Assembly (NCBI GenBank): GCA_963641445.1
Contig: CAVIBR010000001.1
Location: 244,920-308,919, forward strand
DNA length: 64,000 nucleotides
Source of the DNA: Bacteroides uniformis
GTDB lineage: Bacteria > Bacillota_I > Bacilli_A > RFN20 > CAG-826
Direction: 5' to 3'
In this document: piece after piece, positions 1,284 to 64,000 of the stretch
How positions within the stretch are numbered: the first letter of the stretch is position 1
Layout of the letters: the number at the start of each line of letters is the position of its first letter
Notes under the pieces: generated by a model
Database searches by the model: none
Told to the model about the DNA's origin: nothing
Seen by the model: the letters and a program-made list of their open reading frames with translations, nothing else
Program-made: the position numbers and the translations under genes

Positions 1284-3281
1284 ATGTCGAAGAACAATTC
1301 AAAAAAATCGATCTTCACGAACCCCCTCTTGTCCACCAAAATCAAGAGCAGTAGCGTGAAGCTCTTCCCAGAAGCAGCCCTTGGCTATCTTCTAGGGCCA
1401 ATCCTCGCCCTGATCTCGAATGGCGTTGTAAACATCTGGCTTATCCAATATTGGGATAAAGTCTTGATGCTTGGAGATTGGAATCCTTTATTCGAGACCC
1501 TTTTGCCAATTCTCTCTGCCATACTTATCGTTATAGGCAACCTCTTTGTTGGCAAATTGATGGAAAAGAAACCTACAATCGCAGGTAAAGCAAGACCATT
1601 CATTCTATTAGGAATGCCTCTTGTTGCTATTGCCCTTTTGGTTTTATTCATCGTTCCTCTCCCAACTGGAAACGGAACTGCTGCCGATATTGGTGGAACG
1701 GGCGGAAGTTTCTCTAATCTTTGGGCTAGTATCATCATTGCAATTGGCTATAACCTCTATTACGCCTTTGCTTGGCCAATCTATTACACATCACATTCAG
1801 CATTAGTTAACCTTTCAACAAGAGATGGTGGATCCCGTGGTCTTCTTTCTACTTGTATCATGGCCGCTCAGCTTGGCGCTGCCGGACTCTCTGGCATGGC
1901 TGGCGGTATCTTAGTCGACCTTATTGGCTTACTACCTGTCTATCACGTCAATAGCCTTGATAAAAACTTCTCAACCTATAAAGAAGCACTTACTGCAGCA
2001 GGCGGAAATGCTTCAGATATTCTTACGAAAATCACCCCTGCCGAAGCTAATAGCAAATGGACGATTCTTATGATCATCATGATTGTCTGCTTAGTCATCG
2101 GCTGCTTACTTGAATATTATTTCACCCGTGAAAGAATCACCGAAGAAAACGTCAAGACCCTTGAAATGAAAGAAGTTAACGGACAAGCAGATGCAACTCC
2201 AGTTTCAAAAGGCGTCACGATGAGCGAACAAATCTATATTTGTATGCATGACAAATATTGGTGGATCATCATGATATTCTTCTTCCTCTATCAATTTGGC
2301 GGACAGATGAAAAACAACGACCTTTCATTCTATTCCCAAGCCTTCACTGGCGGAACTTCACTCTCTTCATTTATCAATACCTTAGGCGCTATCCCAACGG
2401 CATTAGGCATGTTACTTGTATGGCCTCTTGCTAATAAATTCACCAAATCAAAGACGATTATTGGCGGATGTGCGGTTGCCTTCCTTGCTTCCCTTCTCTC
2501 ATTCATTTGCTTAATTCCTAACGCAGGAGAAGCAACAATCTGGTCTGTTTCTATCGTTTCCTTCATGATTAAGGCTTTAGGAACTGCCCCAGCTATGTAT
2601 ATCTCTTTAGCCCTTCTTGCTAACGTTCTTGATCACCAAGAAGCATTATATGGTAAGAGAACAGATGGCTTCACGATGTCCATCTATGGTTCCATCATGG
2701 TTGCCATGTCTGGTGTTTGTAATGGCATCATCGCTGGTCTTAATTCCGCTTTCCCTGAAGGAGGAAAAATGCTCCACACAATCCTTGGCTATATCGTCGA
2801 GGGTGGTTGCTACCTCATCATGGGACTTATGTTCTTGGCAATGAACGTTGAAAAATTCACAAAGATTGATAATGCGACAATCATCGCCGATCAAAAAGCT
2901 AAGACTTTAGCCGAAGGAAAAGAATGGCTTGAGTCAGAAGAAAGAGCCGCTAAAGAAGAAGCTGAAAACGCTCGCTTAGTCGAAGAAGCTCGTATCGCCC
3001 AATTAAAAGCTGATTGCGAGAAGAAACGTCTTAGCTTCGATGAAGAAAATGCAAAATTCCTTGCTGAAAAAGCAAAGAAAGATGCAGCTGCAGCTCAAAA
3101 GAAAGCTCAATCTGAAGAAAAGAAAGCTGCAAAAGAAGCACTTAAGAAAGCAAGATTCGATGCTCTTCCAGAGGATAAGAAAGCTAAGATTATTGCAAAA
3201 CAAGAGCAAAACGAAGAAAAGATTGCTTCGGAATTTGCCGTCCTTAAAGAAAAAGCCAAAGAAACAGGCTTGGCTGCTTAA
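1284..3281 (+). CDS. Glycoside-pentoside-hexuronide (GPH)/MFS-type sugar:cation symporter with long C-terminal Lys/Glu/Ala-rich coiled-coil tail
   Basis: Start chosen at ATG 1284 (RBS AAGGAG 8 nt upstream; the 1137 ORF extension has no RBS); ~12 TM helices with MelB/GPH-like layout; last ~140 aa are low-complexity KEAA-rich (EEAENARLVEEARIAQLKAD...KKAAKEALKKARFD). Confidence 0.7.
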   Translation: MSKNNSKKSIFTNPLLSTKIKSSSVKLFPEAALGYLLGPILALISNGVVNIWLIQYWDKVLMLGDWNPLFETLLPILSAILIVIGNLFVGKLMEKKPTIAGKARPFILLGMPLVAIALLVLFIVPLPTGNGTAADIGGTGGSFSNLWASIIIAIGYNLYYAFAWPIYYTSHSALVNLSTRDGGSRGLLSTCIMAAQLGAAGLSGMAGGILVDLIGLLPVYHVNSLDKNFSTYKEALTAAGGNASDILTKITPAEANSKWTILMIIMIVCLVIGCLLEYYFTRERITEENVKTLEMKEVNGQADATPVSKGVTMSEQIYICMHDKYWWIIMIFFFLYQFGGQMKNNDLSFYSQAFTGGTSLSSFINTLGAIPTALGMLLVWPLANKFTKSKTIIGGCAVAFLASLLSFICLIPNAGEATIWSVSIVSFMIKALGTAPAMYISLALLANVLDHQEALYGKRTDGFTMSIYGSIMVAMSGVCNGIIAGLNSAFPEGGKMLHTILGYIVEGGCYLIMGLMFLAMNVEKFTKIDNATIIADQKAKTLAEGKEWLESEERAAKEEAENARLVEEARIAQLKADCEKKRLSFDEENAKFLAEKAKKDAAAAQKKAQSEEKKAAKEALKKARFDALPEDKKAKIIAKQEQNEEKIASEFAVLKEKAKETGLAA

Positions 3282-3297
3282 TTCTAGGAGAAACGAA

Positions 3298-5745
3298 ATG
3301 AAACATCAAGATATCTTAGATAAGCTTTCCCTCGAAGAAAAAGCCTCCTTGCTTTCAGGAAAAAACTTCTGGGAAACGCAAGAAATTCCTTCCGCTAACG
3401 TTCCTAGTATGTTTCTCTCTGATGGTCCTAACGGCCTTAGAAAACAGGCTAAGGCCGCTGACCATTTGGGATTAAACCCATCAATTCCAGCTGTTTGTAT
3501 GCCAACAAGTGCTACATCAGCATGTTCTTGGGATCCTGAACTCTTACATTTAGTTGGTAAGACAATCGGAGAAGAAGCGGCTGCTGCTGATGTCTCGCTC
3601 CTTTTAGGACCTGGCATAAACATGAAAAGAAACCCACGCTGTGGAAGAAACTTCGAATATTTCTCTGAAGACCCATATCTTGCTGGCAAACTTGCCGTTG
3701 GATATACAAATGGCGTTCAAGAAAATGGCATAGGCGTTTGTTTAAAACACTTTGCTGCCAATAACCAAGAAATTAGAAGAATCACATCAAACTCCGTTGT
3801 TGATGAAAGAACCCTTAGAGAAATATATCTCACTGCTTTTGAAATAACCGTCAAAGAAGCAAAGCCATTATCGGTCATGTCTTCTTACAACAAAGTCAAT
3901 GGCATATATGCCAACGAGAATCCCCACCTGTTAAAAGAAATCCTCCGCGATGATTGGGGATTTGATGGAATTGTCGTTTCAGACTGGGGTGGCGATAACG
4001 ATCGTATTGAAGCAGTTAAAGCCCAATCTGAGCTTGAAATGCCTACAACCGATGGTGAAACAAATAGAGAAGTTGTCCAAGCCGTTAAGGATGGTCGCTT
4101 AAAAGAAGAAGATGTTGATATTCTTGCTGATGGCATCATCGATGTTGTCTTAAAAACCACCGAGAACCTTAAGAAGGCCCCAAAAGAATTTAACAAAGAA
4201 GAACATCACTCCATCGCTCAAAAAGTCGCAGAAGAATCTCTCGTTCTCTTAAAGAATAAAGACAACATCCTTCCATTAAAAGAAGGAAGCAAGATTGCCA
4301 TCGTTGGTGATTTTGCAGAAAATATGCGTTACCAAGGCGCAGGATCTTCCGTTGTTAATCCTTTGAAGGTTGATCAAATCAACGATGTTCTAAAAGAATA
4401 CAAACTCAACGTCGTTGGATACGAGCCAGGTTTCAAACGTTATGGCAAGAAGAACCAACGTTTAATCGATAAAGCCCTTAAGCTTGTAGAAAAATGCGAT
4501 ACCGTACTTCTCTTCTGCGGATTAGATGAAGTCACTGAAGCAGAAGGCATAGATAGAGCAAATATCCGTCTTCCGGGAAATCAAAGAGAATTAATTTCCG
4601 CTTTGTATCACACGGGAAAGAAAATCGTTCTCATCATTGAATGCGGTGCGCCAATCGAAATGCCATTTGCTGATAGAGTTGACGCTATCTTACATGCATA
4701 TTTAGCTGGTGAAGCAGGCGCTAGAGCAATCATCAACATCCTTGTTGGAAAAGTAAATCCATCAGGAAAATTGGCTGAATCATATCCATATGGCTATGCA
4801 GATTGTCCATCCGCTGACCACTTTGGAAAAAACGATAAGAACATCGAATATCGTGAAGGCCTCTATATCGGTTACCGTTATTACAATGGTGATAAGATCG
4901 GTGGAGCACGTTTCCCGTTCGGTTATGGCTTAAGCTATACTACATATAAATACGATAATCTTGTTGTTAGCAAAGATGGCGTTAAATTCTCCATCACTAA
5001 CACTGGAAAAGTCGATGGAAAAGAAATTGCTCAGATGTATATTGGCATGAAAGATTCAAAGATCTTCCGTCCAATCTATGAATTAAAAGGTTTCAAGAAA
5101 GTCTTTATTAAGGCTGGAGAAACCGTTGAAGTAAGCATTCCATTTGATGAATATTCATTCCGTTACTGGGATACAAAAGAAAATAAATTTGAAACTGAAG
5201 GTGGAACATATCAAATATATGTTGGACCTTCATCTAAAGAACTCCCATTAACCGGAGAAATCAAGGTTGAAGGAAAAGATGCCTCTGGAGTATACGATAA
5301 GGAAAAACTTTCACATTACTTCTCAGGAGACGTCAGACAAATCGGCGATGATGAATTCAAAGAGCTTCTTGGTGGAGAACTTCCTCCAAAAGATGAAGCA
5401 TTCGTCAAGAAACACCGTATTGTCGTTGACTACAATTCTTCGATATCTGATTTACATTATGCGAAGGGCTTTGCGGGCAGGCTTTTTGCCGGGTCAATCC
5501 GCTTTGCGATTAAATTTTTACGCAAGATTGGCAAAAGAACTACTGCAAATACCCTCGTAATGGGTGTATACTACAACCCAGTTCGTGCCTTATCTAGAAT
5601 GACAGGCGGAGCAATGAGCATGGCCCAGCTCGATGGTCTCATCATCATGTTCAATGGGCATTTCTGGAAAGGACTTCACCATTTTAACAAAATGGGACGT
5701 GCTAGAAAGAAAGAAAAAAAGGCCAAGGGGAAGAAAGAGAAATAA
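3298..5745 (+). CDS. Glycoside hydrolase family 3 beta-glucosidase (BglX-like) with C-terminal basic extension
   Basis: Start at ATG 3298 (RBS AGGAGAAACGAA). GH3 signatures: KHF(A)ANNQE, VVSDWGG (catalytic Asp), FPFGYGLSYTTY, FnIII-like domain; extra ~170 aa basic tail ending RARKKEKKAKGKKEK. Confidence 0.85.
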   Translation: MKHQDILDKLSLEEKASLLSGKNFWETQEIPSANVPSMFLSDGPNGLRKQAKAADHLGLNPSIPAVCMPTSATSACSWDPELLHLVGKTIGEEAAAADVSLLLGPGINMKRNPRCGRNFEYFSEDPYLAGKLAVGYTNGVQENGIGVCLKHFAANNQEIRRITSNSVVDERTLREIYLTAFEITVKEAKPLSVMSSYNKVNGIYANENPHLLKEILRDDWGFDGIVVSDWGGDNDRIEAVKAQSELEMPTTDGETNREVVQAVKDGRLKEEDVDILADGIIDVVLKTTENLKKAPKEFNKEEHHSIAQKVAEESLVLLKNKDNILPLKEGSKIAIVGDFAENMRYQGAGSSVVNPLKVDQINDVLKEYKLNVVGYEPGFKRYGKKNQRLIDKALKLVEKCDTVLLFCGLDEVTEAEGIDRANIRLPGNQRELISALYHTGKKIVLIIECGAPIEMPFADRVDAILHAYLAGEAGARAIINILVGKVNPSGKLAESYPYGYADCPSADHFGKNDKNIEYREGLYIGYRYYNGDKIGGARFPFGYGLSYTTYKYDNLVVSKDGVKFSITNTGKVDGKEIAQMYIGMKDSKIFRPIYELKGFKKVFIKAGETVEVSIPFDEYSFRYWDTKENKFETEGGTYQIYVGPSSKELPLTGEIKVEGKDASGVYDKEKLSHYFSGDVRQIGDDEFKELLGGELPPKDEAFVKKHRIVVDYNSSISDLHYAKGFAGRLFAGSIRFAIKFLRKIGKRTTANTLVMGVYYNPVRALSRMTGGAMSMAQLDGLIIMFNGHFWKGLHHFNKMGRARKKEKKAKGKKEK

Positions 5746-14715: not shown

Positions 14716-14866
14716 AAACAATAAAGAAAAAATTTAATGCAATATATTAGAATTTATATTGCATTTTTTGTTTTTACTTTGCGAAACCTTTCATATCGGT
14801 ATCATTTTTTTGAAATAGTCGTTAATTAATGTAAAAATGTTAGCGGTTTCATTTAAGGAGGATTAT

Positions 14867-31272: not shown

Positions 31273-31286
31273 TGAAAGGAAAAAAT

Positions 31287-33722
31287 ATGAAAAAATCAAA
31301 ATTATTAGTTTTCTCCCTTGCCTCAGTCTTAATGCTTGCTGGCTGTGGAGATAACCAAACCTCATCCTCTACTGAAGGAGCTTCTTCCTCAAACACAAGT
31401 GAAGTAGTTTCTTCCTCCGAAGAATCTTCAACAAGCAGTTCTTCCTCCGAAAGCTCTTCGAGCGAATCTTCTTCTGAAGTAGTAATCGAAACTGCAACAA
31501 TCAAGAAAATCACCAACTATGTTACTGAAGGAACATTAAACGTTACCGAAGGTGACAAAGTTGAATTGAATTCAAAAATCACTTTAACCTTCACCGAAGC
31601 CGTTTCAGACAAGGAATATCAAATTCTTGTTAACCAAACAATCGCCGATATGGAATGGGCCGAAGATAACCTTTCTTGCTTCTACACCTTAAATGCAAGC
31701 AAAGACGAAGAAATCTCAATTGCCCTCATAGAAAAGAATCCTACTTCCGAAAATGGACAGACAATCACCTTCGAACAAGGCGAACACTACAAAGTCCTTG
31801 GCATCGTCTCCGGCCAAAAATATGAGCCACTTGATGACTATTCTGAAGAATTAGAAGATTGGGTCACGGTCTCGATCGATTTTGCAATCATCGTCGATGA
31901 AGGATATATTCTTGCTAAACCAATTTTAACTGTTGATGGGATTGACCAATCTCTTTCTAAAAATGATCAAGGTCTCTATTCAATTGGTAAATGGGATTTG
32001 ACTGGCGCAGGCGCTTTGACAATCAATGTTAACAAAGCAGTTGAACACACGATCACATATACTGGTGCAGAAAATCTTGATACAGCGGCATCTAACATCC
32101 CAACAACCTTCATGGGTGGAGATACGATCACCTTCAAGTTCATTGCCAAGGGGGGATTCTCTGTCACGGCCGTTTCTGTCCAACCATATGATAATTCTTA
32201 CTATTATCAAAAAGATTATTCCAACTACACAATCACTCTTCCAAATGAAGATGTGCAAATTGCCATAACTACAGTCGCATCATATGCAATTAAATTGTCT
32301 TCAACCGAGCATCTTTCTAATATCGGATTCTATTCAACGGCTGAGTATGGTTCCGATTCCGAAGGCAATACCGCTCTTAAATTATCAGACGAAATAACAA
32401 CTGCTCCTTCTAACCAACGTTTCTATGTCGCATTCAACGTTGAAGATGGGTACAAAGTTAGTGAAATTGTTGGTGCAGAAGTTGCAGGACTTGCCGAAGG
32501 CGCTCAATCATGGTGTGGTTCAACGGACGGCAGAATCGTCTTCAATTGCACTCTCTATGGTGAAACGGAATTAAAACCAGTCTTTGTCACAAAGAAGAGC
32601 GTTACATTAGACTCTTCAACCGACTCTGATAAAGTCTCTCTTGTCTTTACTGGTGATGTTAACACGTTCTTCCCTGAAGATGACGTTAAATTCAACTTCT
32701 TACTTGAAGACACAAAAAATACAAGAATTGGCCAAGTCTATTATTGCTATACTGATGAAAATGGTGAAGCAGTTGAAAAAGAAGTCAACTATTCAAAATA
32801 CTACAGCAGTTATACCTTTGTTATGCCAAATGCAGACGTTACCATCAAAGCAGAAGTTATCGATATTGTTAAAACAACAGTATCTTATTCAAATACGGCT
32901 GGAAGCCTTGTTGGATCAGTCAATATAGTTGGTGCAACAAGCGGAACCAAACTAGATGACTCAACAAGCACATCAGACTCATTCGAAGAAAAAGAATCTC
33001 TTAATATTACAATCAAAGCCGGGCCTGAACATTTTAAGAAGGTCGCGGCAAACCTTGTTACCGCTACTGAAACAACTGCTATTGAATTAACACTCAACAT
33101 TGCAAAAGGAACCTACACCGGTAGCGTTTCCGTTCCAGTTGGTGGAGCAACAATTCAAATCGTTGAAGGCGAATATGCCACTGTTAGAACATTAACCGCT
33201 TCTGAAACAAGCACGATTGAATATTACGAAAGCACTGATGTATCATCCAAAGTTAATATATTAGGAAATCTCTACGACATGGATGTCTTCTATTTCGTTG
33301 TTAAGGATACACCAGCTGAAGGATATTCACTTTCCGTTTCCGTTAAGATTGATGGAGAAGAAGTACCATCCTTAAGTACAGTCACAATCGGTGATGAAAC
33401 TGCTTATAAGGTTATCGTTTCTGGCAATGTTGAAATCTCTGTTGAACAAGTTCAAGCCGTTTCATTCGGTGTCTCTGGCGCTGACTACGAAGGAGATGGA
33501 TCTGATATTTTCATTGACTTTGATACAAATGATTATATCCAAGTTAACAATGGAACAATCAAATACGGCACAAGATTCTATTTAGATGATCCTGATTATG
33601 GTAGAGAAATAGAAACAATAACAATTGGCGGAGAAACCGTTAAGCCTGACTATATTGATGGATTCCATGGCGTTTATACAGCTACAGGTGATGTAGTTAT
33701 CACTCTCATCGAAGCGTATTAA
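31287..33722 (+). CDS. Large surface lipoprotein with poly-Ser linker, hypothetical
   Basis: Start at MKKSKLL (RBS GAAAGGA); lipobox LAGC|G; SSSEESSTSSSSSESSSSESSSE linker; repeated T/V/G-rich beta modules. Confidence 0.6.
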   Translation: MKKSKLLVFSLASVLMLAGCGDNQTSSSTEGASSSNTSEVVSSSEESSTSSSSSESSSSESSSEVVIETATIKKITNYVTEGTLNVTEGDKVELNSKITLTFTEAVSDKEYQILVNQTIADMEWAEDNLSCFYTLNASKDEEISIALIEKNPTSENGQTITFEQGEHYKVLGIVSGQKYEPLDDYSEELEDWVTVSIDFAIIVDEGYILAKPILTVDGIDQSLSKNDQGLYSIGKWDLTGAGALTINVNKAVEHTITYTGAENLDTAASNIPTTFMGGDTITFKFIAKGGFSVTAVSVQPYDNSYYYQKDYSNYTITLPNEDVQIAITTVASYAIKLSSTEHLSNIGFYSTAEYGSDSEGNTALKLSDEITTAPSNQRFYVAFNVEDGYKVSEIVGAEVAGLAEGAQSWCGSTDGRIVFNCTLYGETELKPVFVTKKSVTLDSSTDSDKVSLVFTGDVNTFFPEDDVKFNFLLEDTKNTRIGQVYYCYTDENGEAVEKEVNYSKYYSSYTFVMPNADVTIKAEVIDIVKTTVSYSNTAGSLVGSVNIVGATSGTKLDDSTSTSDSFEEKESLNITIKAGPEHFKKVAANLVTATETTAIELTLNIAKGTYTGSVSVPVGGATIQIVEGEYATVRTLTASETSTIEYYESTDVSSKVNILGNLYDMDVFYFVVKDTPAEGYSLSVSVKIDGEEVPSLSTVTIGDETAYKVIVSGNVEISVEQVQAVSFGVSGADYEGDGSDIFIDFDTNDYIQVNNGTIKYGTRFYLDDPDYGREIETITIGGETVKPDYIDGFHGVYTATGDVVITLIEAY

Positions 33723-33931
33723 TATCAACTCTCAGCAGAAAACGAAAGCTGTCCATTAAGGATGGCTTTTTTCTTTTATCGCAAATCTGATTGAGTTTTA
33801 CCTATGATTTTTCAATTTTTAATTGTTTTCCTTTACTAATAATTTGGAGATGGTTCATTATTCAAACTTGTTTTTAGAACTGCCTTAACGTAAAATTAAT
33901 TAAATTTTAGAAAAAGTAAAGGACAATAATT

Positions 33932-34711
33932 ATGAAAAAGACTCTAAAAATACTTTCAATAGTCCCTTTATTCGTTTTATGTTCGTGTGGAAATGAAACG
34001 AATTCAAGCGAGGCAAATGTATTAAACGAGGCTGATGCTAAAGCACAAGTCGCTTCAATGAAAGCGGAAGTTGAAAAAGAAGACTTCAAAGTGCCAACGT
34101 CTGGCCAAATATTAACCGATCTTGTTACCTCAAGCGCTTCACTCTCTTTTAGTGTGACTTCAGATGTTAGATTCAACACGGAAGCAGGTTCAAGATACTT
34201 TTATTCAAATTCAAATTTACTTGGAACAACGATTGTTTGCTATTATGAAAAAGACGGGAAGTATTATGGATATGTTTCTTCTGCTTATGGTGAAGATAAA
34301 ACAGAATTAACCGAGGATGAATTCACCAACACTTTCGAAAGCACTATTACAGAATCCGGCATTGATGCAACATCATTGAAAACGAATGTTGTTGAAGGAT
34401 TAGATACCATTACTAATTTGTATGATAACTTTGAAAACACTTCTAGCTCAGTGGATGTTACTACTGATCTTGAAGTTACTTTCACTAAAATCAACGAATC
34501 ATCGTTTAAAGTTGAGGCTAACGGTAAAGTAAAACAATCTTCATTGGGGACGGCAGACGCTGTTATCAAAATCGAATATGAAAACTACCTTCCTAAGAGC
34601 AGGTTTATGGATGTTACTGCTACCGAATCCGGGCAAGAAGTTAAAACTAAAACAACTCAAACTTACACCTGGGGCAGTGTTGAGTACATCTATCCTGAAA
34701 TAAACAAATAA
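33932..34711 (+). CDS. Lipoprotein, member 1 of tandem paralog family (ends ...YTWGSVEYIYPE)
   Basis: Lipobox VLCS|C; shares VRFNTEAGSRYFY and C-terminal Y-x-WGSVEYIYPE with next two genes. Confidence 0.6.
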   Translation: MKKTLKILSIVPLFVLCSCGNETNSSEANVLNEADAKAQVASMKAEVEKEDFKVPTSGQILTDLVTSSASLSFSVTSDVRFNTEAGSRYFYSNSNLLGTTIVCYYEKDGKYYGYVSSAYGEDKTELTEDEFTNTFESTITESGIDATSLKTNVVEGLDTITNLYDNFENTSSSVDVTTDLEVTFTKINESSFKVEANGKVKQSSLGTADAVIKIEYENYLPKSRFMDVTATESGQEVKTKTTQTYTWGSVEYIYPEINK

Positions 34712-51177: not shown

Positions 51178-52419
51178 TTAGAATTCGCTATTTAAGAGGG
51201 TGATACCATCAATGGTGATATCAAAATATGGAGCGGAACGCTTAGAACTTTCAGCAAAGAAAGTGATTCCGTCTTTAGTTTCAATAGCTTCTGTATCGCC
51301 AGTATAGGCTGCATCAGTATCAACATCTGCAAGATAAGAAGTAATATGACCCTCTCCATCAACTTTCATTGCTGATGTGATGTTCTTTCCAGAGACAGTG
51401 AAAGTAGAAGTATCGAATACTTTGAGGGTGCCGTTTCTAAGTTTGCCTGCAACTTCGTTAACTTTATCTTCTGTTCCGGCGACTGTTGCAACTTTACCAA
51501 ATTCGCTTAAAGCAACCGAACCATTGCTTAAAGTTGAACCTAAATCGCCAGTGTAATCAGTTTCGATTGATTCACCTTTTTTGAGTTGTTGGAAACAATA
51601 TTTGAAATATGGCTCCCAATCGATTTTTGAAGAAACTAAATACGTATTTGGGCATTTAGATTCTGTTGAGCCGTTATAGGAAACGTTAGGAACGTTCTTG
51701 CTTTCGCAAATAGTTGGAGCTCCCCATGAGTCAGCGTGTTGGGAGATAAGTGAGCAACCACCGGAGATCAATTTTTCTGCGGCTGTTTTTTCGGCTGTTT
51801 CATCATACCAAGATCCAGTGAATTGAACATCCATCGTAACGTCAGAAACAATTGATTTAACGCCAAGATAGAAAGAAGTATAGCCAGAGATAACTTCGGC
51901 ATATGTATAAGCACCGACATAGCCAATCTTCTTAGATGTGCTAGCATCTTTTGAAATCATATCTTGGAGTTTTAAACCTGCTGCAACACCGGCAAGATAT
52001 CTTCCTTCATAGATTGAAGCAAAAGCATTATGGAAATTAGAAACGTTTGCGGTATGCGCTTTGGTTCCGGAAGCGTGAGCGAATTGAACATTAGGTTCTT
52101 CTTTGGCTGCTTTGATGAGGTAATCTTCATGTCCGAACGAGTCAGCAAAGACGAATTTGCATCCAGATTCAACTAAATCGATGGATTTTTCGTAGGCATC
52201 ATTGGATTCTTTGACACTTGTTACGATTACTGGAGTGACGTTTTCTGCTTCAGAAGCTGCTTTGAAAGCGTCGATGAAGTTCTTGTCATAAGTAGAGCTT
52301 TCATCATGTAAAGCAATAAGGCCGACTTTGATTGTGTCGTCTTTCTTTGTTTCGCCGCAACTAGCTAAAGCGGTAATGGTGAGGATTGATAAGGCTGCTA
52401 ATTTAATACACTTTTTCAT
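51178..52419 (-). CDS. BMP-family (Med/TmpC/PnrA-like) nucleoside-binding lipoprotein, substrate-binding component
   Basis: Lipobox ALAS|C; BMP fold motifs (IKVGLIALHDESSTYDK...DAF); ~60 aa longer than typical at C-terminus. Confidence 0.8.
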   Translation of the reverse strand: MKKCIKLAALSILTITALASCGETKKDDTIKVGLIALHDESSTYDKNFIDAFKAASEAENVTPVIVTSVKESNDAYEKSIDLVESGCKFVFADSFGHEDYLIKAAKEEPNVQFAHASGTKAHTANVSNFHNAFASIYEGRYLAGVAAGLKLQDMISKDASTSKKIGYVGAYTYAEVISGYTSFYLGVKSIVSDVTMDVQFTGSWYDETAEKTAAEKLISGGCSLISQHADSWGAPTICESKNVPNVSYNGSTESKCPNTYLVSSKIDWEPYFKYCFQQLKKGESIETDYTGDLGSTLSNGSVALSEFGKVATVAGTEDKVNEVAGKLRNGTLKVFDTSTFTVSGKNITSAMKVDGEGHITSYLADVDTDAAYTGDTEAIETKDGITFFAESSKRSAPYFDITIDGITLLNSEF

Positions 52420-52511
52420 GTGTTCTCCTATTCTTGTCCGTAACCCTTGTTTGAGAATTGGAAAGAAAGCAAGTCTAACAAATGAAAAAGCTAGATACTG
52501 TTAAGATTTTG

Positions 52512-52580
52512 CTTGTTCATAGTGTTGGATTAAGGTCCAACGTAGAAACTTTCCGCCAATCCGGCAATTATACGAACAAT
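52512..52580 (-). ncRNA. Purine riboswitch, guanine class (C74), leader of nucleoside ABC transporter operon
   Basis: Minus-strand RNA GUUCGUAUAAUUGCCGGAUUGGCGGAAAGUUUCUACGUUGGACCUUAAUCCAACACUAUGAAC: P1 GUUCGUA/UAUGAAC, conserved UAUAAU, J2/3 AAGUUUCUAC (exact), P3 GUUGGA/UCCAAC, then A-C-UAUG with C at specificity position. Confidence 0.8.
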
Positions 52581-52746
52581 GTCTTTCGACAACATATTTT
52601 GAAACATATTCAGTCAATATAAAAGAGGAAATTACTCTGAAAACGGTTTCAAAAAAAATTTACAATCTTTTTCTAGCCAAATTGTAAAGACGGGTATAAC
52701 CTTAAAAAATAGAGCGATGTTTCTATAAATCCATAGGAGAACATTA

Positions 52747-53319
52747 ATGCGTAAAATAATCATGAACCAAGCTCAAATTGAAGCTTGTTACAAAAAAGTC
52801 GGTGAAGAAATTTCTTCTTCTCTTAGAAATGAAGAAAAAAGACCTATCTTACTTTGTGTCATGAAAGGAGCGATGACCTTCCTTATTGGTATGATGAAAT
52901 ATATCGATATTCCTGTGATCGTTGATTATATCCATATCTCTTCATATGACGGAACATCATCAACTGGAAAAGTAAACCTTCTTAAAGATATGACCTTCAA
53001 TCCAGAAGGGAGAACGATTGTCATTGTTGAAGATGTTGTTGATACTGGCATTGCAATTAATTACCTTCAAGAATATTTAAAGACAAAGAACCCAAAAGAT
53101 ATCAAAGTCGCGACATTCTTCAACAAAACAGCAAGACGTGAAGTAGAGGTTAAACTCGATTATGTTGGAGAAACATTCACCGAGAATCTCTTCTTATTGG
53201 GTAATGGATTTGACTATAACGAAATTGGAAGAAATATTCCTTATGTCTTTATCCCTGATGAAGAAGATTTCAAGAATTGGGATGAAATTTGTGAGAAAGA
53301 CCCAATACAAAAGTTATAA
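52747..53319 (+). CDS. hpt: Hypoxanthine(-guanine) phosphoribosyltransferase
   Basis: PRPP-binding motif VIVEDVVDTGIA, 190 aa; divergent from guanine-riboswitch-controlled transporter. Confidence 0.85.
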   Translation: MRKIIMNQAQIEACYKKVGEEISSSLRNEEKRPILLCVMKGAMTFLIGMMKYIDIPVIVDYIHISSYDGTSSTGKVNLLKDMTFNPEGRTIVIVEDVVDTGIAINYLQEYLKTKNPKDIKVATFFNKTARREVEVKLDYVGETFTENLFLLGNGFDYNEIGRNIPYVFIPDEEDFKNWDEICEKDPIQKL

Positions 53320-58088: not shown

Positions 58089-58175
58089 TTCCGAAGAAAT
58101 TGCCATTAAAAACGCTTGGTTTTAGTCAGAAATGATTGTTTGAAAATAACAATATTTTTCCTAATCTTCTTTTTT

Positions 58176-58250
58176 ATAGAATTCTATATTTTTTGCTATT
58201 TGATTAATCAAATAGAGGCACCAATTTTCGACAATTTTATAGAATTCTAT
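58176..58250. promoter_or_regulatory. Twin 12-bp perfect palindromes ATAGAATTCTAT (58176-58187 and 58239-58250) within 31-bp direct repeats; candidate operator pair
   Basis: ttttatagaattctatatttttgctatttg and ttttatagaattctatatttttgtcgatttg; centre-to-centre 63 bp (6 helical turns). Confidence 0.5.
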
Positions 58251-58404
58251 ATTTTTGTCGATTTGTTAAAGAAAAATATCAATTATTATTGAAGAAGATC
58301 TAAATGCGTTGTTACAACTATGTCTTTTTTATAATGAAATTAGTCAATTCACCATATGAATGTTTCTAATTAATTAACTTGCTTAAAATTTTTACAAATA
58401 AATG

Positions 58405-58435
58405 TTGCAAATTAGAAGGGGGGGGTCTCTATAAT
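58405..58435 (+). promoter_or_regulatory. Candidate sigma-A promoter TTGCAA-19 nt-TATAAT with a G8 homopolymer inside the spacer (potential slipped-strand phase-variation switch)
   Basis: ttgcaa attagaa gggggggg tctc tataat; G-run 58418-58425; 60 nt upstream of ATG 58494; poly-G is compositionally anomalous in this AT-rich genome. Confidence 0.5.
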
Positions 58436-58493: not shown

Positions 58494-59075
58494 ATGAAAA
58501 AACATCAAAAGGTGTTATTAGGATTGATGGTCCTAGGCCTTGCTGGCGGTGTCGGCACGGCTGTAGCGTTGACCCGTAACGCGGCAACGGATTCAACCGG
58601 CGGTGGCTTAGATCAAGCTATCTATCTAAATTGGGGTAATGAGGTCCAAAATTCCGAAGCACAAGCAACAGTCGAAAACTTAGTTGCAAAAGCTCCTCAG
58701 TATCGTTATCTTGTTGTAACAACAAAGGCAACGAATTTATTAAAAGGAAATGTCACATTAACATTTACTGCGGCAACTGAAGAAGATACCGTCATGACTG
58801 GCTTAACGATTGACGTATATTCCGTTACAACTGAAAAAACTTCGACCTTCGTTACTTCAACTGAAGAAGGTATTGCACCAGACAAACTTGAAGGAACGAT
58901 TTCCGAAACGAACAAAACCGTAACATCAAAATTCGCTGTTGATGGAACAGCAGCAACGAGCTTAACTCATTACTACACGTTGGTCTTCACATGGGATGGC
59001 ACATCGCCTGAAGATGCAAACAAATCAATTGGCGCGAATCTAACAGTTTCACAGGATTTCGCTATTGCAGAATAA
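58494..59075 (+). CDS. Secreted protein with SipW-cognate-like signal peptide (TasA/TapA-like small subunit candidate)
   Basis: MKKHQKVLLGLMVLGLAGGVGTAVALT resembles TasA/camelysin signal (…GGGTWAAFND); mature part beta-rich T/V-rich ~160 aa; first gene of cluster with sipW. Confidence 0.45.
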   Translation: MKKHQKVLLGLMVLGLAGGVGTAVALTRNAATDSTGGGLDQAIYLNWGNEVQNSEAQATVENLVAKAPQYRYLVVTTKATNLLKGNVTLTFTAATEEDTVMTGLTIDVYSVTTEKTSTFVTSTEEGIAPDKLEGTISETNKTVTSKFAVDGTAATSLTHYYTLVFTWDGTSPEDANKSIGANLTVSQDFAIAE

Positions 59076-59089
59076 AGGAGCTATAGATT

Positions 59090-60187
59090 ATGAAAAAGAT
59101 GAATAAATTTATTGTCGCAGCTTCTTTAACTGCTGGTGTTGTTGGCTGCTTTGGAGCAGCGTTTGCTCTCTACAAAAAGGCCGAAAATCCATTAAATATT
59201 GGTATTGGCAAAGTCACCACCCACGGTGACTCGACTGCCGTAATCAATTACTCATTTGGCGATGGCGTTACTGCGTACAAAGATGAAGCTTTGGAAAATA
59301 CAATTAGTTTAAAAGATAACGTTATTTCACCTGAAATTAATAAAGTTTATCTTAAAGTTCCTCTTCAATTCAAATATACAACCGAAGATGCAAGCTTCAC
59401 TAGCCAAGGAACAACCGTTGGCCGTTTCTCAGTAACTGTTGATATTAATGAAAAAGTCAGAACTGCAGGCAACGTAGTAGTTGGAGCTAAACTTTGCGGG
59501 TATGAAAAAGTTACCATAACAGGCGACGACCAGCAGAACTACGATGTAGATACATATTTTACAGCCGAAAAAACAAAGAATTTCTTCGATACTACATTTA
59601 ATAATGAAACTACAACTAAAGTAACGAAGTATATAGATACAGCAGTTGATAAAACCAGCATTTATTGTGTTATCTCAATTGATATGAGTGCCGCTATGAC
59701 TGATGATAATTATAAATATTATGACTTAGTCAACGAACTTAAAGACGGAAATGCTTTCGATGTTTCTCTTAATTGGGAAGGCTATAAGAGCACTCTTGCG
59801 AACTTTGATACTAAACTTGTACCTAATGCATATGTCCGTGGCGACTATAGCGACTGGGGAATACGCGAAGGATATCAAATGGTTCCAAATATCAAAGGAC
59901 GTGTAAATATCGGTTCCGATGATAGCCATTGGGAATGGGGCGTTGAATGGACCTATAAGATCTTAAAGAACTTCAGTGTTATTAAGGTATACGACGAAAG
60001 TGATACTTTAGTTAATGACAGCGGCTGGGTTTATTGCAGAGGTGTAGCAGCAGGCTCTGGAGCTACTAAAGAAGACAATGGTAATGCCAAGCTTGATAGC
60101 GAAAAGACTTATGACATCTATTACAAGCGTAATTGCAAAACTGAAGCTGGCTTCTGGGTCGACCCTGGTTCTGAAAGCGTAGACTAG
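59090..60187 (+). CDS. Secreted TasA/camelysin-like protein candidate with C-terminal Trp-rich beta domain
   Basis: Signal ...GVVGCFGAAFALYKKAENPLNIGIGK (AAFA-Y motif as in SipW substrates; shares A-x-A-x-Y-(x4)-N-x-NIGI with 60903 gene); RBS AAGGAG. Confidence 0.45.
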   Translation: MKKMNKFIVAASLTAGVVGCFGAAFALYKKAENPLNIGIGKVTTHGDSTAVINYSFGDGVTAYKDEALENTISLKDNVISPEINKVYLKVPLQFKYTTEDASFTSQGTTVGRFSVTVDINEKVRTAGNVVVGAKLCGYEKVTITGDDQQNYDVDTYFTAEKTKNFFDTTFNNETTTKVTKYIDTAVDKTSIYCVISIDMSAAMTDDNYKYYDLVNELKDGNAFDVSLNWEGYKSTLANFDTKLVPNAYVRGDYSDWGIREGYQMVPNIKGRVNIGSDDSHWEWGVEWTYKILKNFSVIKVYDESDTLVNDSGWVYCRGVAAGSGATKEDNGNAKLDSEKTYDIYYKRNCKTEAGFWVDPGSESVD

Positions 60188-60208: not shown

Positions 60209-60874
60209 ATGAAAAAGAAGCAAAAGAGAAAAAATAAAGTTATTTCGATAATTGGCGAGGTGCTCTTATGGGCTCTCGCTCTCTTTTGTGTTTCCGTTTC
60301 ACTTGTAAGCACGATTGACACACATACAAACTATTCGTGTTCTTACTTTGGATTAAGAACATCGGTCATTGTTTCTAATTCAATGGCTAATGCCAATCCA
60401 GAGAACACTTATTTAGATTCTTCGATGACTCGGATAAACAAATATGATGTTATAACCGCTAAAGAGGTCTCATATGATGATATATCTCTTTATGACGTCG
60501 TCCTTCATGTTGAGGGAAACAATCTTATTTGTCACCGAGTCATCGATAAGTATCAAGACAATGGAACATCGTATTTAGTCACCCGTGGTGATTCAAATAA
60601 CGTTAATGACGCTCCATTTGCTTACTCATCGTGTAGAGGCAAAGTCATCAATGTTATTCCAAATATAGGAGAAATGGTTCTCTTCCTTCAAAGTGGTTAT
60701 TTCTTCCTAGCCTTATTCTTCTCGATATTCCTTGTCGCTGGAACTCTCTTTACGATCTCTTTTGTTTCTGAAAAGAAAAAAGCTAAGGCAATAAGCCAAT
60801 CTAATACCAATGCTGATATAATTGACGTTGAGATAAATAAAGAAGATCCTTCAAAAGAAAACAAAGAAGAATAA
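60209..60874 (+). CDS. sipW: SipW-type (archaeal/ER-type) signal peptidase I, S26 family
   Basis: N-terminal TM, catalytic Ser box VSNSMAN (SxSMxP-like), conserved HRV...TRGDSNNVNDA (GDNN-x-D box), and a C-terminal TM as in B. subtilis SipW. Confidence 0.7.
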   Translation: MKKKQKRKNKVISIIGEVLLWALALFCVSVSLVSTIDTHTNYSCSYFGLRTSVIVSNSMANANPENTYLDSSMTRINKYDVITAKEVSYDDISLYDVVLHVEGNNLICHRVIDKYQDNGTSYLVTRGDSNNVNDAPFAYSSCRGKVINVIPNIGEMVLFLQSGYFFLALFFSIFLVAGTLFTISFVSEKKKAKAISQSNTNADIIDVEINKEDPSKENKEE

Positions 60875-60902: not shown

Positions 60903-62246
60903 ATGAAAAAATGCAATAGAATCATATTGCCGATTTCTGTCATATCTTTTTCCTTTGCCTTAATTTCTCTTAACCATGCTCTTGCAACATATATGAATAC
61001 TGCAAGTAACATCAATATAGGCATATCAGGAGTTACTCCAAGTTATTATCTTGAGTGGAATAGTGGCGAAAAAGAAACGTTAGCTAGTGATGGTTCAACC
61101 ACTCAATATAGCAAAACGGTTAATATATCTGAAACAGGCAGCTATTCATATAAAATAGTCGATATTAACAATAATGAAATATTCTCTCAATCATCGTTTG
61201 ACGTGGGTTTGACCGGGGATTTTTCAATTTCTTTTGATTCTGAAACAAAGAAATCATCCATAACTTATTCATTCTCAGTCCTAGATCATGGAAAAGTATT
61301 TGGCGAAGGGATGTATTGCTATGCAAGTGAAAACGATCCAACCGCAGTCGGGCATAAGATAATTGGAAGTTTCTGCAACTGGTCGTTAGGATCTTCTAGT
61401 GCTGTTCAAATGTCAAATAATCCTAATAATTCTGATGATAAAGGGATGGCGAGACATGTCTATCTTGCAAACGGAAACACATTTAAGCTCGTTGATTCAA
61501 ATGGAACTTATTATGGCTATTCGAAGTTAAAATCAGCAAATGATTTTGATGACTTTGGAAATTGCTTTAGCGAAGACACAAATTCAGATTCTAATATAAC
61601 TGTAACTAAATCCGGATATTATGATTTTTGCTATGCTTCAGATGGAAATTTATATGTTTCTAAGAGCGATGAAGCGGAATACATTCAAGGAACCACCGAT
61701 GGGATAATTACAACATTCACGCTAGATGCAACCAAATACGCTTCATCCAATACATATTTGTCTTTTTATGGAAACGAAACAGCTAAACATAGTGGAACAG
61801 CGGATATAGCATATTTATTCTCTTCAGAAACTAATGCTACATGTCTAATGACAAAGGATATCTATTTGAACCCTGGAAAATGGAATACCGCTAGTGCTTG
61901 GTTTATGGCTGGAGTTGGTTCAACAAACTCTTCAAAGACAAATTACGTTAAAATGGTACAAAACGGAGACACTTATTATTCTATGAGTTTGCTAACTTCG
62001 GATGCGTATGCTGATTTCTATCGCATGAATAGTGAGTATGATAAATCCGATCCAAAGTATAATGATCCATCTTATAAATGGAATATGGTTAGCTCATTAT
62101 CCGATGGAAAAGATATTGATGTTGCAAATTATTCCTGCTTCTCAATAATTGAAAATTCAGGTGGATCATGGACTGAAAATGATTGCTCAATAACATCCAT
62201 TCCAACAGGACTCCCTCAATATAGTCCTATTCCATATATTAACTAA
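60903..62246 (+). CDS. Secreted protein with SipW-cognate-like signal and two putative CBM25/26-like starch-binding modules
   Basis: Signal ...LNHALATYMNTASNINIGISG; motifs IGSFCNWS...YLANGNTFKLVDSNGTYYG and YLSFYGNE...AYLFS...LMTKD...GKWNTASAW...VQNGDTYYS resemble CBM25/26 (VYF..W..Y.YFW...MTKD..GW...NNG...YY). Confidence 0.45.
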   Translation: MKKCNRIILPISVISFSFALISLNHALATYMNTASNINIGISGVTPSYYLEWNSGEKETLASDGSTTQYSKTVNISETGSYSYKIVDINNNEIFSQSSFDVGLTGDFSISFDSETKKSSITYSFSVLDHGKVFGEGMYCYASENDPTAVGHKIIGSFCNWSLGSSSAVQMSNNPNNSDDKGMARHVYLANGNTFKLVDSNGTYYGYSKLKSANDFDDFGNCFSEDTNSDSNITVTKSGYYDFCYASDGNLYVSKSDEAEYIQGTTDGIITTFTLDATKYASSNTYLSFYGNETAKHSGTADIAYLFSSETNATCLMTKDIYLNPGKWNTASAWFMAGVGSTNSSKTNYVKMVQNGDTYYSMSLLTSDAYADFYRMNSEYDKSDPKYNDPSYKWNMVSSLSDGKDIDVANYSCFSIIENSGGSWTENDCSITSIPTGLPQYSPIPYIN

Positions 62247-62261
62247 AGGAGATAAACAAAT

Positions 62262-64000
62262 ATGAAGAAAAAGAATCTAAATATCTTATTATTCACAGGA
62301 TTATTGCTAAGCATTTTTTCCTGTTCTCCTTCGAATGATACTAGTAGCAATACTACCGACGAAACTATCTCCTCAAAAGAAGAAGGAACAAGTGAAAGCC
62401 CATTATCTTCATCAACTTCATCTAGTACAAGTTCTTCATTATCAAAGAAAGATGACGATCCAGATATTTCTGAAAAATTCACCGGAATAGTAAGAATTTA
62501 TTTCCATGATGATGGAGGAACAGAAAAAAACAAAGCAATCTATTGCTGGATTTCAGGCGTAGACGGAACAGAATATGCCTGGGATGGAGAAGAAGATGGT
62601 TATGGCACATACAAAGATATCGACCTTTCTGATCCTAAATTCATCGATAAAGTAACAGATGATTTCTATTTCATCATCAAATATCCCGCAACATGGGATG
62701 GGCAAAGCGATGATATCAAAATCGTTCTTTCTGATTATCTAAAGAATGGTGAAGTAGATACCCTAGAAAATGGTAAAAAAAGAATAAATGTTTTCGCTTG
62801 CGATGAAGGAGGAGGAAACTACGTTACCTATTACCATAAAGCAGACGCACTTGGTTTCCGTTTTGGCACAGCAACCATAGAAAAAGACTGGAAAACATTA
62901 AAGGTAACTTGCACTGGCAAATGTGTTTCCTATTCACTATATGCACTTGATGGAGCCTTTGCTGCTAAAAAGATAGCAGTAACCGATCCAGAAGCCAATC
63001 TAAGTTCATACCTCATAAAAGAAGACAAACCTAACGTTGATTCTTTTGAACTTGATCTGACTTCCTTAAGCTATCCAACAGGTAGAGCAGTAACAGTAAG
63101 ACCAAACCTTACTTTCATGCTTATTGGTCATTTTGAAGACGCTCCAGAGAAAACAAAAACCAAAGCAGTTTCTTTCGATAAGCTTTTTGATACCGATAAA
63201 TTCATCTCTGATTACACCTATTCCGGCGATGATTTAGGCGTGACATATAGCAAAGAACGTACCGAATGGAAGCTTTGGAGTCCACTTTCAGTTAAAGCTG
63301 ATTTAGTCCTCTATAGAGACGGAACCCCTAAAGCGCTTGTCACCGATAATTCCGGCGGATGGAATGATTTTGCCTATAAAGTAGAATCAATGAGATATGA
63401 CTCAAACGGAGTATACGTTGCTGCATTAAAAGGGGACTGGTCTGGATATTTCTATCAGTATCGTCTCTATTACAACGGAACGTATGTTGATACACCTGAC
63501 CCATATGCCACCTCGTGTGGGCTTAATGGAGTTCGCTCTGCTGTAACTGATTTCTCCTCCCTCAACCCAACTGGATGGGATGATATTTCCTATACAGCCT
63601 TATCTTCTCCAACGGAATTAACTCCTTATGAAGTTCATATTAGAGATCTGACATCTCACTCAACTTGGATCTCTAGAAAAGGAAATGAAAGAGGAGGATA
63701 TAACGCCTTCCACGAAAAAGGAACGGGGTTTAACGGGGTAAAAACGGGTTTTGACCATATAAAAGAGTTAGGAGTCAATGCAGTTCAACTCTTACCAGTC
63801 TTTGATCAAGATAATGATGAAAGAACATTGACCGATAAGAATGGCGTAGTCCATAAACCTAACTATAACTGGGGATATAATCCAGCTAACTATAACTGTG
63901 TGGAAGGATCCTATTCCTCAAACCCAAGCGATCCAAATGTCCGTGTCAAAGAATTCAAATCTCTAATTAAAGATTATGCTGATGAAGGAATAAGAGTAAT
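62262..64000 (+). CDS. Type I pullulanase (GH13) lipoprotein, 3'-truncated by window end; not present in supplied ORF track
   Basis: ATG 62262 after AAGGAG; signal+lipobox IFSC|S, Ser-rich linker; pullulanase signature YEVHIRDLT (YN/E-x-H-x-RD), GYNAFHEKGTG, NWGYNP; open through 64000. Confidence 0.8.
   Translation, partial: MKKKNLNILLFTGLLLSIFSCSPSNDTSSNTTDETISSKEEGTSESPLSSSTSSSTSSSLSKKDDDPDISEKFTGIVRIYFHDDGGTEKNKAIYCWISGVDGTEYAWDGEEDGYGTYKDIDLSDPKFIDKVTDDFYFIIKYPATWDGQSDDIKIVLSDYLKNGEVDTLENGKKRINVFACDEGGGNYVTYYHKADALGFRFGTATIEKDWKTLKVTCTGKCVSYSLYALDGAFAAKKIAVTDPEANLSSYLIKEDKPNVDSFELDLTSLSYPTGRAVTVRPNLTFMLIGHFEDAPEKTKTKAVSFDKLFDTDKFISDYTYSGDDLGVTYSKERTEWKLWSPLSVKADLVLYRDGTPKALVTDNSGGWNDFAYKVESMRYDSNGVYVAALKGDWSGYFYQYRLYYNGTYVDTPDPYATSCGLNGVRSAVTDFSSLNPTGWDDISYTALSSPTELTPYEVHIRDLTSHSTWISRKGNERGGYNAFHEKGTGFNGVKTGFDHIKELGVNAVQLLPVFDQDNDERTLTDKNGVVHKPNYNWGYNPANYNCVEGSYSSNPSDPNVRVKEFKSLIKDYADEGIRV

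Follow-up and report, generated by a model that had tools for sequence, protein, structure and literature searches.

SusE and SusF are non-catalytic starch binders in which an N-terminal non-binding domain precedes starch-specific modules, two or three of them in tandem (PMC4173775). In monoderm gut bacteria, as exemplified by the amylosome and Sas proteins of Ruminococcus bromii and by the polysaccharide utilization loci of Eubacterium rectale and Roseburia, surface starch binders are gathered with enzymes of glycoside hydrolase family 13 (GH13) (PMC4611034, PMC9112005, PMC5320581). Within the operon tapA-sipW-tasA, the dedicated signal peptidase SipW processes the products of its neighbours, and donor-strand complementation is driven by the N-terminal strands so created, with TapA in the role of initiator or adhesin (PMC9245690, PMC10151520). 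Subunits of the TasA superfamily are often encoded beside signal peptidase genes (10.1101/2024.12.30.630787). Here we describe an eight-gene operon at the end of a 64,000-nucleotide stretch of contig CAVIBR010000001.1, referred to below as the window, which encodes a pullulanase, a 447-residue secreted protein (ORF-C) and a SipW-type signal peptidase. We consider it probable that this is a monoderm Sus-like operon for the capture and debranching of starch, in which a SipW-type peptidase encoded in the operon itself processes the binders that are not lipoproteins.

The operon lies on the + strand and comprises, in this order, ORF-A, ORF-B, the signal peptidase, ORF-C (gene 4), the pullulanase, two lipoproteins with SusE/F-like modules and a GH13 amylase lipoprotein (Table 1). 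It occupies 58.5-64 kb of the window and about 6.5 kb past the window end. The intergenic gaps from ORF-A through the pullulanase gene measure 14, 21, 28 and 15 bp, and no terminator-like site was found on the + strand inside the operon, except for one match at chance level. The identical gene set and order, with all eight genes, was found in the public loci L003, L005, L006 and L012, in which the identity of ORF-C goes from 90% down to about 40%, and L004 contains a more divergent version of the operon. Since homologues and their gene order are conserved in at least six other loci, ORF-C and the pullulanase are real genes. A first-pass annotation of the window had proposed that these two form a starch-capture and debranching unit. 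This pairing is supported by the present analysis, but the wider eight-gene operon, the peptidase and the signal shared by its presumed substrates had been overlooked. In L003, the orthologue of ORF-C is split (10001-11147) into an N-terminal piece of 117 amino acids (aa) and a piece of 256 aa running into X residues. The Bacteroidales label of L003 conflicts with its low-GC, Bacillota-like gene content, probably as a result of a binning error.

The 447-aa open reading frame (ORF) and, downstream of it, a frame remaining open up to the window end had both been seen in the first pass, and both were found again. The second frame carries the pullulanase motifs YEVHIRDLT and NYNWGYNP. It was missing from the original ORF listing, as it is from the new one, for the reason then given, i.e. 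that it leaves the window. The public contig L001 and the window have 3649 bp in common, without a single mismatch, and L001 encodes an identical 447-aa ORF-C. A stop or a frameshift past position 64,000 was sought on this contig and none was found: the frame continues unbroken to 1014 aa, ending at the equivalent of window position 65306, which ruled out a pseudogene or a truncation. Orthologues in the other loci are 1000-1014 aa long.

The assignment of this gene to a lipoprotein pullulanase was supported. Its N-terminus, MKKKNLNILLFTGLLLSIFSCSPSND, contains a near-canonical lipobox (I-F-S-C), Pfam recognised CBM_48 and Alpha-amylase domains, and the full-length protein scored 486.4 bits (E=8.9e-146) against NCBIfam TIGR02104, 18 bits under the equivalog cutoff of 504.5. 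Regions I-IV of GH13 read DVVYNH, GFRFDLMG, YGEGW and YISCHDN in the L001 translation, with the catalytic Asp/Glu/Asp, and are accompanied by the motif YNWGYNP. Type I pullulanases account for all of the nearest solved structures, which were matched over residues ~310-838 with E values of 1e-101 to 1e-79, the best matches being those of Paenibacillus barengoltzii (6jeq), R. bromii Amy12 (7lsa/9qfa), Bacillus acidopullulyticus (2wan), Anoxybacillus (3wdh) and Bacillus subtilis AmyX (2e8y). The CAZy subfamily is presumably GH13_14, going by the classification of these structures. The window enzyme shares with them the CBM48 and the GH13 core, regions I-IV and the motif YNWGY(N/D)P; unlike them, it is a lipoprotein, scores below the TIGR02104 cutoff and has an N-terminal extension of about 240-300 aa without assigned family. 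Its sequence is best described as type-I-like, which predicts an alpha-1,6-debranching, lipoprotein-anchored enzyme. Pfam found no match in the N-terminal region (residues ~70-315; window 62262-63200). This region opens with a motif, IVRIYFHDDGG...AIYCWISG, that resembles CBM41/PUD modules; a sub-threshold PUD match (E=0.024) was also observed in the downstream amylase (L003 16571-19327, residues ~147-217).

ORF-C has only 12 detectable homologues among 5.8 billion protein clusters, and none of the 12 is annotated. In an AlphaFold2 model computed with the alignment of these homologues, the mean predicted local distance difference test (pLDDT) was 84.7, with a hydrophobic helix at residues 11-33 and values below 50 for residues 1-43. 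The model comprises three domains following the signal peptide: an immunoglobulin-like D1, a SusE/F-type module (D2) and a further beta-sandwich (D3). The sole above-threshold Pfam match was SusF_SusE (PF16411), over residues 153-266 (31.2 bits for a cutoff of 27.5). When the whole model was submitted to Foldseek, the top match was SusF (4fe9_A, E=1.1e-6, probability 1.00, 248 columns), and no other structure reached E<=1e-3. The lipoproteins of 536 and 254 aa encoded downstream have modules homologous to D2 (hhalign probabilities of 98.5% and 97.1%). The family alignment disclosed invariant or conserved aromatic residues in D2 (W160, Y239, Y240) and in D3 (W327, W393, W423), and the weak, sub-significance matches collected among the 13 family members were all to starch modules, namely CBM_20, hGDE_N and the pullulanase X25 module. 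ORF-C has no lipobox, its signal ending in A-L-A/T (the slash marking predicted cleavage). From sequence and model, we infer that ORF-C is a secreted, non-catalytic, three-domain alpha-glucan-binding protein with a SusE/SusF-like architecture, starch being its predicted ligand.

This agrees in part with the first-pass annotation, which had described a secreted starch-binding protein upstream of the pullulanase, with two segments of carbohydrate-binding type. Secretion, the absence of a catalytic domain and the starch-binding type stood, binding itself being a prediction, and two beta-sandwich domains, D2 and D3, are indeed present in the model. What had to be abandoned is the family: the segments had been ascribed to carbohydrate-binding modules (CBM) 25/26, and neither CBM_25 (PF03423) nor CBM26 (PF16738) was matched by the whole protein (E<=1), by D3 alone (E<=10) or by the 13 family members, the SusE/F-like PF16411 being found instead. 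Furthermore, when ORF-C was compared by hhalign with a true CBM26 protein encoded in L008, the signal alone aligned, and membership of ORF-C in CBM25/26 was rejected. D3 was also compared with the C-terminal part of a 278-aa protein of L010, and a homology of the two, whose probability was no higher than 25%, was rejected as well.

ORF-A, ORF-B and ORF-C all start with MKK, a single hydrophobic segment and an invariant small-x-small (A-x-A) site; outside of the N-terminal region they share little or no similarity. Directly after this site, B and C have in common a segment that we call the handle, reading LNIGIGKV in B and INIGISGV in C (pattern x-[IF]-G-I-x), which is near-invariant within both families and unstructured in the monomer model of ORF-C. 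The hhalign probability for B against C was 87%, confined to the first 45 residues, and across loci B- and C-type proteins are collinear over their N-terminal ~45 residues, although unrelated in their mature parts. A profile of residues 1-52, built from B- and C-type proteins, was run against 537 ORFs, from the window and 13 loci. It retrieved members of the clusters only, the A proteins coming next with E values of 1e-5 to 2e-3, and did not match the lipoproteins of the operon. A weak match to ORF 2309 of L008 was discarded, as this is a multi-pass membrane protein. Read by eye, the signals of A, B and C resemble the TasA signal in their small-x-A site followed by a conserved strand.

The third gene encodes a homologue of signal peptidase I of the SipW, or archaeal and endoplasmic reticulum (ER), type. 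Its boxes (SxSM, HR, GDxNxxxD) are those of a Ser-His(-Asp) enzyme and not those of a Ser-Lys dyad, and it aligns with human SEC11C/A over the catalytic His and Asp boxes. Across 32 homologues with identities as low as 26%, residues S58, M59, H109, R110, G127, D128, N130 and D134 do not vary. It has a subfamily-specific insertion following the Ser box and no match in Pfam. From the invariance of its catalytic residues, we judge that it is probably an active enzyme of the Ser-His type, belonging to a divergent subfamily outside the present coverage of Pfam. One locus, L016, also encodes a LepB-type S26 peptidase, 600 bp downstream of its A-B-peptidase module, and the SipW-like enzyme is therefore an additional, dedicated one.

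A distant homologue of the peptidase, of 332 aa and with long N- and C-terminal extensions, is encoded in L014 (7230-8999). It is preceded by a 246-aa protein whose signal end, ...TGFAAWVMSKDASE...NVNVAI, is nearer to the classical pattern of TasA and other SipW-cognate substrates; this pair suggests that the association of a peptidase with a cognate substrate may be general in this enzyme family. A pair of genes adjoins the SipW-like peptidase clusters of L003 (3272-7400), L005 (3238-7375) and L014 (9004-12188); it encodes a membrane-anchored protein that looks like a McrB-type AAA protein, then a protein with, in L014, a weak match to DUF2357 (McrC-like). The L014 peptidase is merely ~33% identical to that of the window, and the window does not contain the McrB/McrC-like pair, whose position may be a coincidence or reflect a mobile defence island.

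More distant relatives of the operon carry other proteins behind the same N-terminal region. In L008, the order is A, B, peptidase and then a 154-aa protein made of the signal, a handle (SAYSL...VSFGITQ) and a CBM26 (PF16738, 8e-13). L010 has a pullulanase, a 1278-aa Big_2/CBM26 protein, A, B, the 278-aa protein, which likewise carries the signal and a handle, and the peptidase. Genes for starch binding or degradation adjoin the A-B-peptidase core in 7 of 8 distinct loci, in differing arrangements and with peptidases down to 42% identity. As judged from these sequences, the cargo is interchangeable behind one N-terminal module.

ORF-A belongs to a family of 124 clusters (50% identity) among 1.84 billion representatives, and none of 20 homologues has a Pfam domain. 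Its AlphaFold2 model is a nine-stranded all-beta sandwich (pLDDT 67), for which Foldseek returned weak jelly-roll matches; the highest template modelling score was obtained with the cannula fibre subunit 9h8b (TMt 0.46, probability 0.99), and TasA was not among the top 50 matches. PF12389 (TasA/camelysin) was matched by 0 of 91 members of the ORF-A family, and profiles of ORF-A and ORF-B made from 21, 91 and 7 sequences had no match among PDB sequences. A link in sequence to TasA/camelysin or to any solved structure was sought for both proteins, and no profile found one. ORF-B had no Pfam, NCBIfam or PDB sequence match. Its N-terminal domain may be weakly related to ORF-A, as hinted by an hhalign probability of 81% over the first ~90 residues. 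For its C-terminal domain, a homology to the SusE/F-like modules was considered and none was detected, the likeness being at the pattern level only. The part of the ORF-A profile that covers signal, linker and first strand (positions 14-61) is matched twelve times by P0152, a protein of 1593 aa, which is either an artefact of low complexity or made of repeats of that segment.

Table 1 Positions and composition of the operon genes, their parts and the upstream palindromes. Slashes in sites mark predicted cleavage.
Feature	Position	Strand	Description
ORF-A	58494..59075	+	193 aa: signal peptide, Gly/Ser/Thr linker, putative beta jelly-roll of ~150 aa
ORF-B	59090..60187	+	365 aa: signal peptide, handle LNIGIGKV, N-terminal domain, C-terminal beta domain
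SipW/archaeal-ER-type signal peptidase I homologue	60209..60874	+	221 aa, N- and C-terminal membrane segments
ORF-C	60903..62246	+	ATG-started ORF, 447 aa
ORF-C, signal peptide	residues 1-28 (60903-60986)		predicted site A26-L-A28/T29
ORF-C, handle NINIGISGV	residues ~33-45 (60999-61037)		conserved, disordered in model
ORF-C, D1	residues 48-127 (61044-61283)		Ig-like beta domain, AlphaFold2 model
ORF-C, D2	residues 138-254 (61314-61664)		SusE/F-type module, beta-sandwich, AlphaFold2 model and Pfam
ORF-C, D3	residues 264-447 (61692-62243)		beta-sandwich with three invariant Trp, AlphaFold2 model and family alignment
Predicted cleavage sites of ORF-A, ORF-B and ORF-C			A23-V-A25/L26; A24-F-A26/L27-Y28; A26-L-A28/T29; invariant per family (ORF-B: 7 orthologues aligned)
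Pullulanase ORF, 5' part	62262..64000 (open at window end)	+	ATG start, 579 codons without stop (translation)
Pullulanase, layout			lipobox Cys21, then Ser/Thr-rich linker, N-terminal region without assigned family, CBM48 (325-416), GH13 catalytic domain
Downstream lipoprotein, 536 aa	on L001/syntenic loci		Listeria-Bacteroides repeat and two modules
Downstream lipoprotein, 254 aa	on L001/syntenic loci		one SusE/F-like module
Downstream GH13 alpha-amylase lipoprotein, 909-918 aa	on L001/syntenic loci		
Palindrome pair TATAGAATTCTATA	58175-58188 and 58238-58251	.	perfect, 14 bp, 63 bp apart, repeat search

According to our proposal, the operon would build a cell-surface unit for starch capture and debranching in a low-GC, Bacillota-like monoderm. 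Its four lipoproteins (the pullulanase, the GH13 alpha-amylase and the two binders with SusE/F-like modules) would be anchored in the membrane. The three proteins without lipobox, A, B and C, would be exported and cut at the A-x-A site, presumably by the SipW-type peptidase of the operon. The cut would expose the handle on B and C, which might tie these binders to a surface partner, most plausibly the putative jelly-roll protein A, so that bound starch would be held beside the membrane-anchored enzymes. What the sequences and models show of this are the content and order of the genes, the intact pullulanase, the SusE/F-like fold of ORF-C, the sharing of modules, the conservation of the peptidase's catalytic residues, a shared signal module confined to neighbours of the peptidase and the exchange of the cargo for a CBM26; starch binding, cleavage by this very peptidase and the role of the handle are predictions. 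A more specific version, which we put forward only tentatively, is that A, B, the peptidase and C constitute a hitherto undescribed assembly, dependent on the SipW-type enzyme, at the surface of uncultured low-GC bacteria of gut type, in which A would be the scaffold and exchangeable cargos (ORF-C, CBM26 mini-proteins and ORF-B) would dock by a common N-terminal strand that the peptidase exposes.

A number of results weigh against the proposal of a Sus-like operon with its own peptidase. The amylolytic neighbours that had been envisaged in the first pass were found in part: two binding lipoproteins and a GH13 amylase follow downstream, but no ATP-binding cassette (ABC) transporter for maltodextrin, nor any obvious regulator, adjoins the operon. 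Only 2 of the 13 members of the ORF-C family reach PF16411, and the family profile found no SusE/F among PDB sequences, which is why the SusE/F link of ORF-C rests mainly on the fold. No family could be assigned to D3 (Pfam at E<=10 and profile comparison), nor to the C-terminal domain of ORF-B. The peptidase scored under the cutoffs of both relevant NCBIfam models, with 43.5 bits for TIGR02228 (cutoff 51.85) and 28.7 bits for the SipW model NF046067 (cutoff 190), and the model of SipW-cognate signals, TIGR04088, did not match A, B or C at E<=1. Finally, L016 contains A, B and the peptidase only, beside rplS and without a starch gene anywhere in the 10 kb covered, and the core A-B-peptidase module may accordingly have a role broader than starch.

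We considered the possibility that ORF-C consists of starch-binding CBM25/CBM26 modules in tandem, leaves the cell by the general Sec/signal peptidase I route and merely happens to lie ahead of a pullulanase. ORF-C does have two beta-sandwich domains with conserved aromatic residues, and the equivalent slot in L008 holds a true CBM26. Yet, neither ORF-C nor D3 alone matched the corresponding hidden Markov models, the L008 protein aligned by its signal only, the best fold match was SusF, and conservation around ORF-C extends to the dedicated peptidase and the shared signal; we regard this explanation as very improbable. Another possibility is that A, B and C retain their signals as uncleaved anchors and are type II membrane proteins, which the peptidase would shed conditionally or with which it would have no relation. 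This would account for the single N-terminal hydrophobic helix modelled in ORF-C, and retention at the surface beside lipoprotein enzymes would make functional sense. It is made unlikely by the A-x-A motif found right behind the helix, invariant in all three families, by the strict conservation of the catalytic residues of the adjacent peptidase and by the position of the peptidase gene, always between its presumed substrates. The L016 trio, sitting beside ribosomal-protein genes, would be explained if A, B and the peptidase formed an independent matrix or adhesion module and their starch-related neighbours were a coincidence proper to one lineage. Against this, the starch genes adjoin the core in all the other distinct loci and in arrangements that differ, and the cargos that C-type proteins carry behind this signal and handle are starch modules, either SusE/F-like or CBM26, making a coincidence quite unlikely.

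As a last alternative, a TasA-like assembly might be formed, in which A would polymerise or form a short stalk by strand complementation and B and C would plug in through their handle, as TapA does, to give a SipW-dependent fibre or tether on which the starch-binding modules would be displayed. The layout of substrates around a peptidase is as in tapA-sipW-tasA (PMC9245690, PMC10151520), and the highest-scoring fold match of the predicted ORF-A jelly roll, 9h8b, is a subunit that has been put in the TasA superfamily (10.1101/2024.12.30.630787). Furthermore, the handle is conserved and yet unstructured in the monomer, as a donor strand would be, and mature A, B and C have no other anchor. In contrast, the ORF-A family is devoid of PF12389 and of matches in PDB sequences, TasA is outside of the top fold matches to a model of moderate quality, and A has no handle, which leaves it without an obvious donor strand for self-polymerisation. 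We consider such an assembly possible, though rather doubtful. By analogy, A, B and C may work like the TasA system, which is a different statement from calling them members of the TasA superfamily.

The comparison with SusE/SusF is mainly one of architecture. ORF-C shares with them the domain layout, the PF16411 match, the SusF fold match and a gene position beside the glycosidases that are served. SusE and SusF are, however, outer-membrane lipoproteins of a diderm, associated with SusC/D, whereas ORF-C lacks a lipobox, belongs to a low-GC monoderm-type genome and is partnered by a SipW-type peptidase; its sequence similarity to them is marginal, and D3 is without an assigned family. No SusC/D genes were found in the 64-kb window or in the compared loci. 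With tapA-sipW-tasA of B. subtilis, sipW-calY and the archaeal TasA-like AbpA/AbpX and cannulae systems, the operon has in common a dedicated ER/archaeal-type peptidase encoded between or next to its presumed secreted substrates and, as far as genes and models can tell, a characteristic substrate signal, a conserved segment following the predicted cleavage site and perhaps a jelly-roll subunit. Unlike in those systems, A, B and C match neither PF12389 nor TIGR04088, and the cargos are starch modules in an amylolytic operon rather than in one for a biofilm matrix. Finally, the operon resembles the systems of R. bromii, E. rectale and Roseburia in the gathering of non-catalytic binders and GH13 enzymes at the surface. 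Attachment is by cohesin-dockerin or by sortase/LPXTG in those systems; no such features were seen in the eight operon proteins (by Pfam for seven and by reading of the sequences), and attachment in the window operon appears to be by lipoproteins and by the SipW-type signal module. Lachnospiraceae have sortase-anchored multimodular starch enzymes. In the literature searched, we found nothing that links SipW with pullulanase, CBM26, the amylosome or SusE, the co-mentions of SipW and starch being concerned with Bacillus biofilms or secretion. By themselves, the starch binder and the pullulanase are of already known kinds; we found no description of a starch operon combined with both a private SipW-type peptidase and a signal-handle module behind which the cargo can be swapped.

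The two copies of the palindrome TATAGAATTCTATA sit centrally in 41-nt direct repeats (58172-58275), within an AT-rich region of 440 bp upstream of ORF-A. Two matches were found in the 64-kb window versus 0.03 expected, and the pair is also present upstream of ORF-A in L006 (7240, 7304) and not in the other loci. A promoter-like site (58228-58255) overlaps the second copy, and a TATAAT box (58430-58435) and a run of eight G precede the start of ORF-A. The palindromes are likely candidate operators for a regulator.

Outside the operon, the sequence is that of an ordinary low-GC, saccharolytic chromosome (36.6% GC), with no rRNA or tRNA gene in the 64 kb. A purine riboswitch (RF00167, 52.8 bits; 52500-52595, - strand) lies upstream of an operon for a Bmp/PnrA-type ABC transporter (- strand; 51178..52419 and the genes following it); a phosphoribosyltransferase gene (52747..53319) points away from it. 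At 28771-34711, Pfam at 1e-5 matched neither of two large abutting ORFs (833 and 816 aa; junction at 31272) nor an ORF of 259 aa. A 1037-aa GH3 protein (14837-17950) is apparently permuted, with the GH3 C-terminal domain at residues 102-423, an Fn3-like domain at 461-537 and the GH3 N-terminal domain at 753-924. A conventional GH3 gene (3040..5745) follows a MFS_2 transporter gene; the two ORFs overlap by about 240 nt, probably as an artefact of the start codon.

Surface starch capture is a key competitive trait of gut bacteria, and the present operon suggests another solution to it, beside the Sus system of Bacteroidota, the amylosome and sortase anchoring, one which uses a private signal and peptidase logic otherwise known from TasA fibres. 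The families of A, B, C and the peptidase are small and without Pfam annotation, and naming them would improve the annotation of uncultured genomes. If a surface assembly is indeed formed, it would represent a third monoderm route to a starch-capturing surface, beside cohesin-dockerin amylosomes and sortase anchoring. If the handle is an element of assembly or tethering, the TasA/SipW principle would extend from matrix building to nutrient acquisition, and the signal and handle would together be a compact modular display tag, naturally fused to different CBMs.

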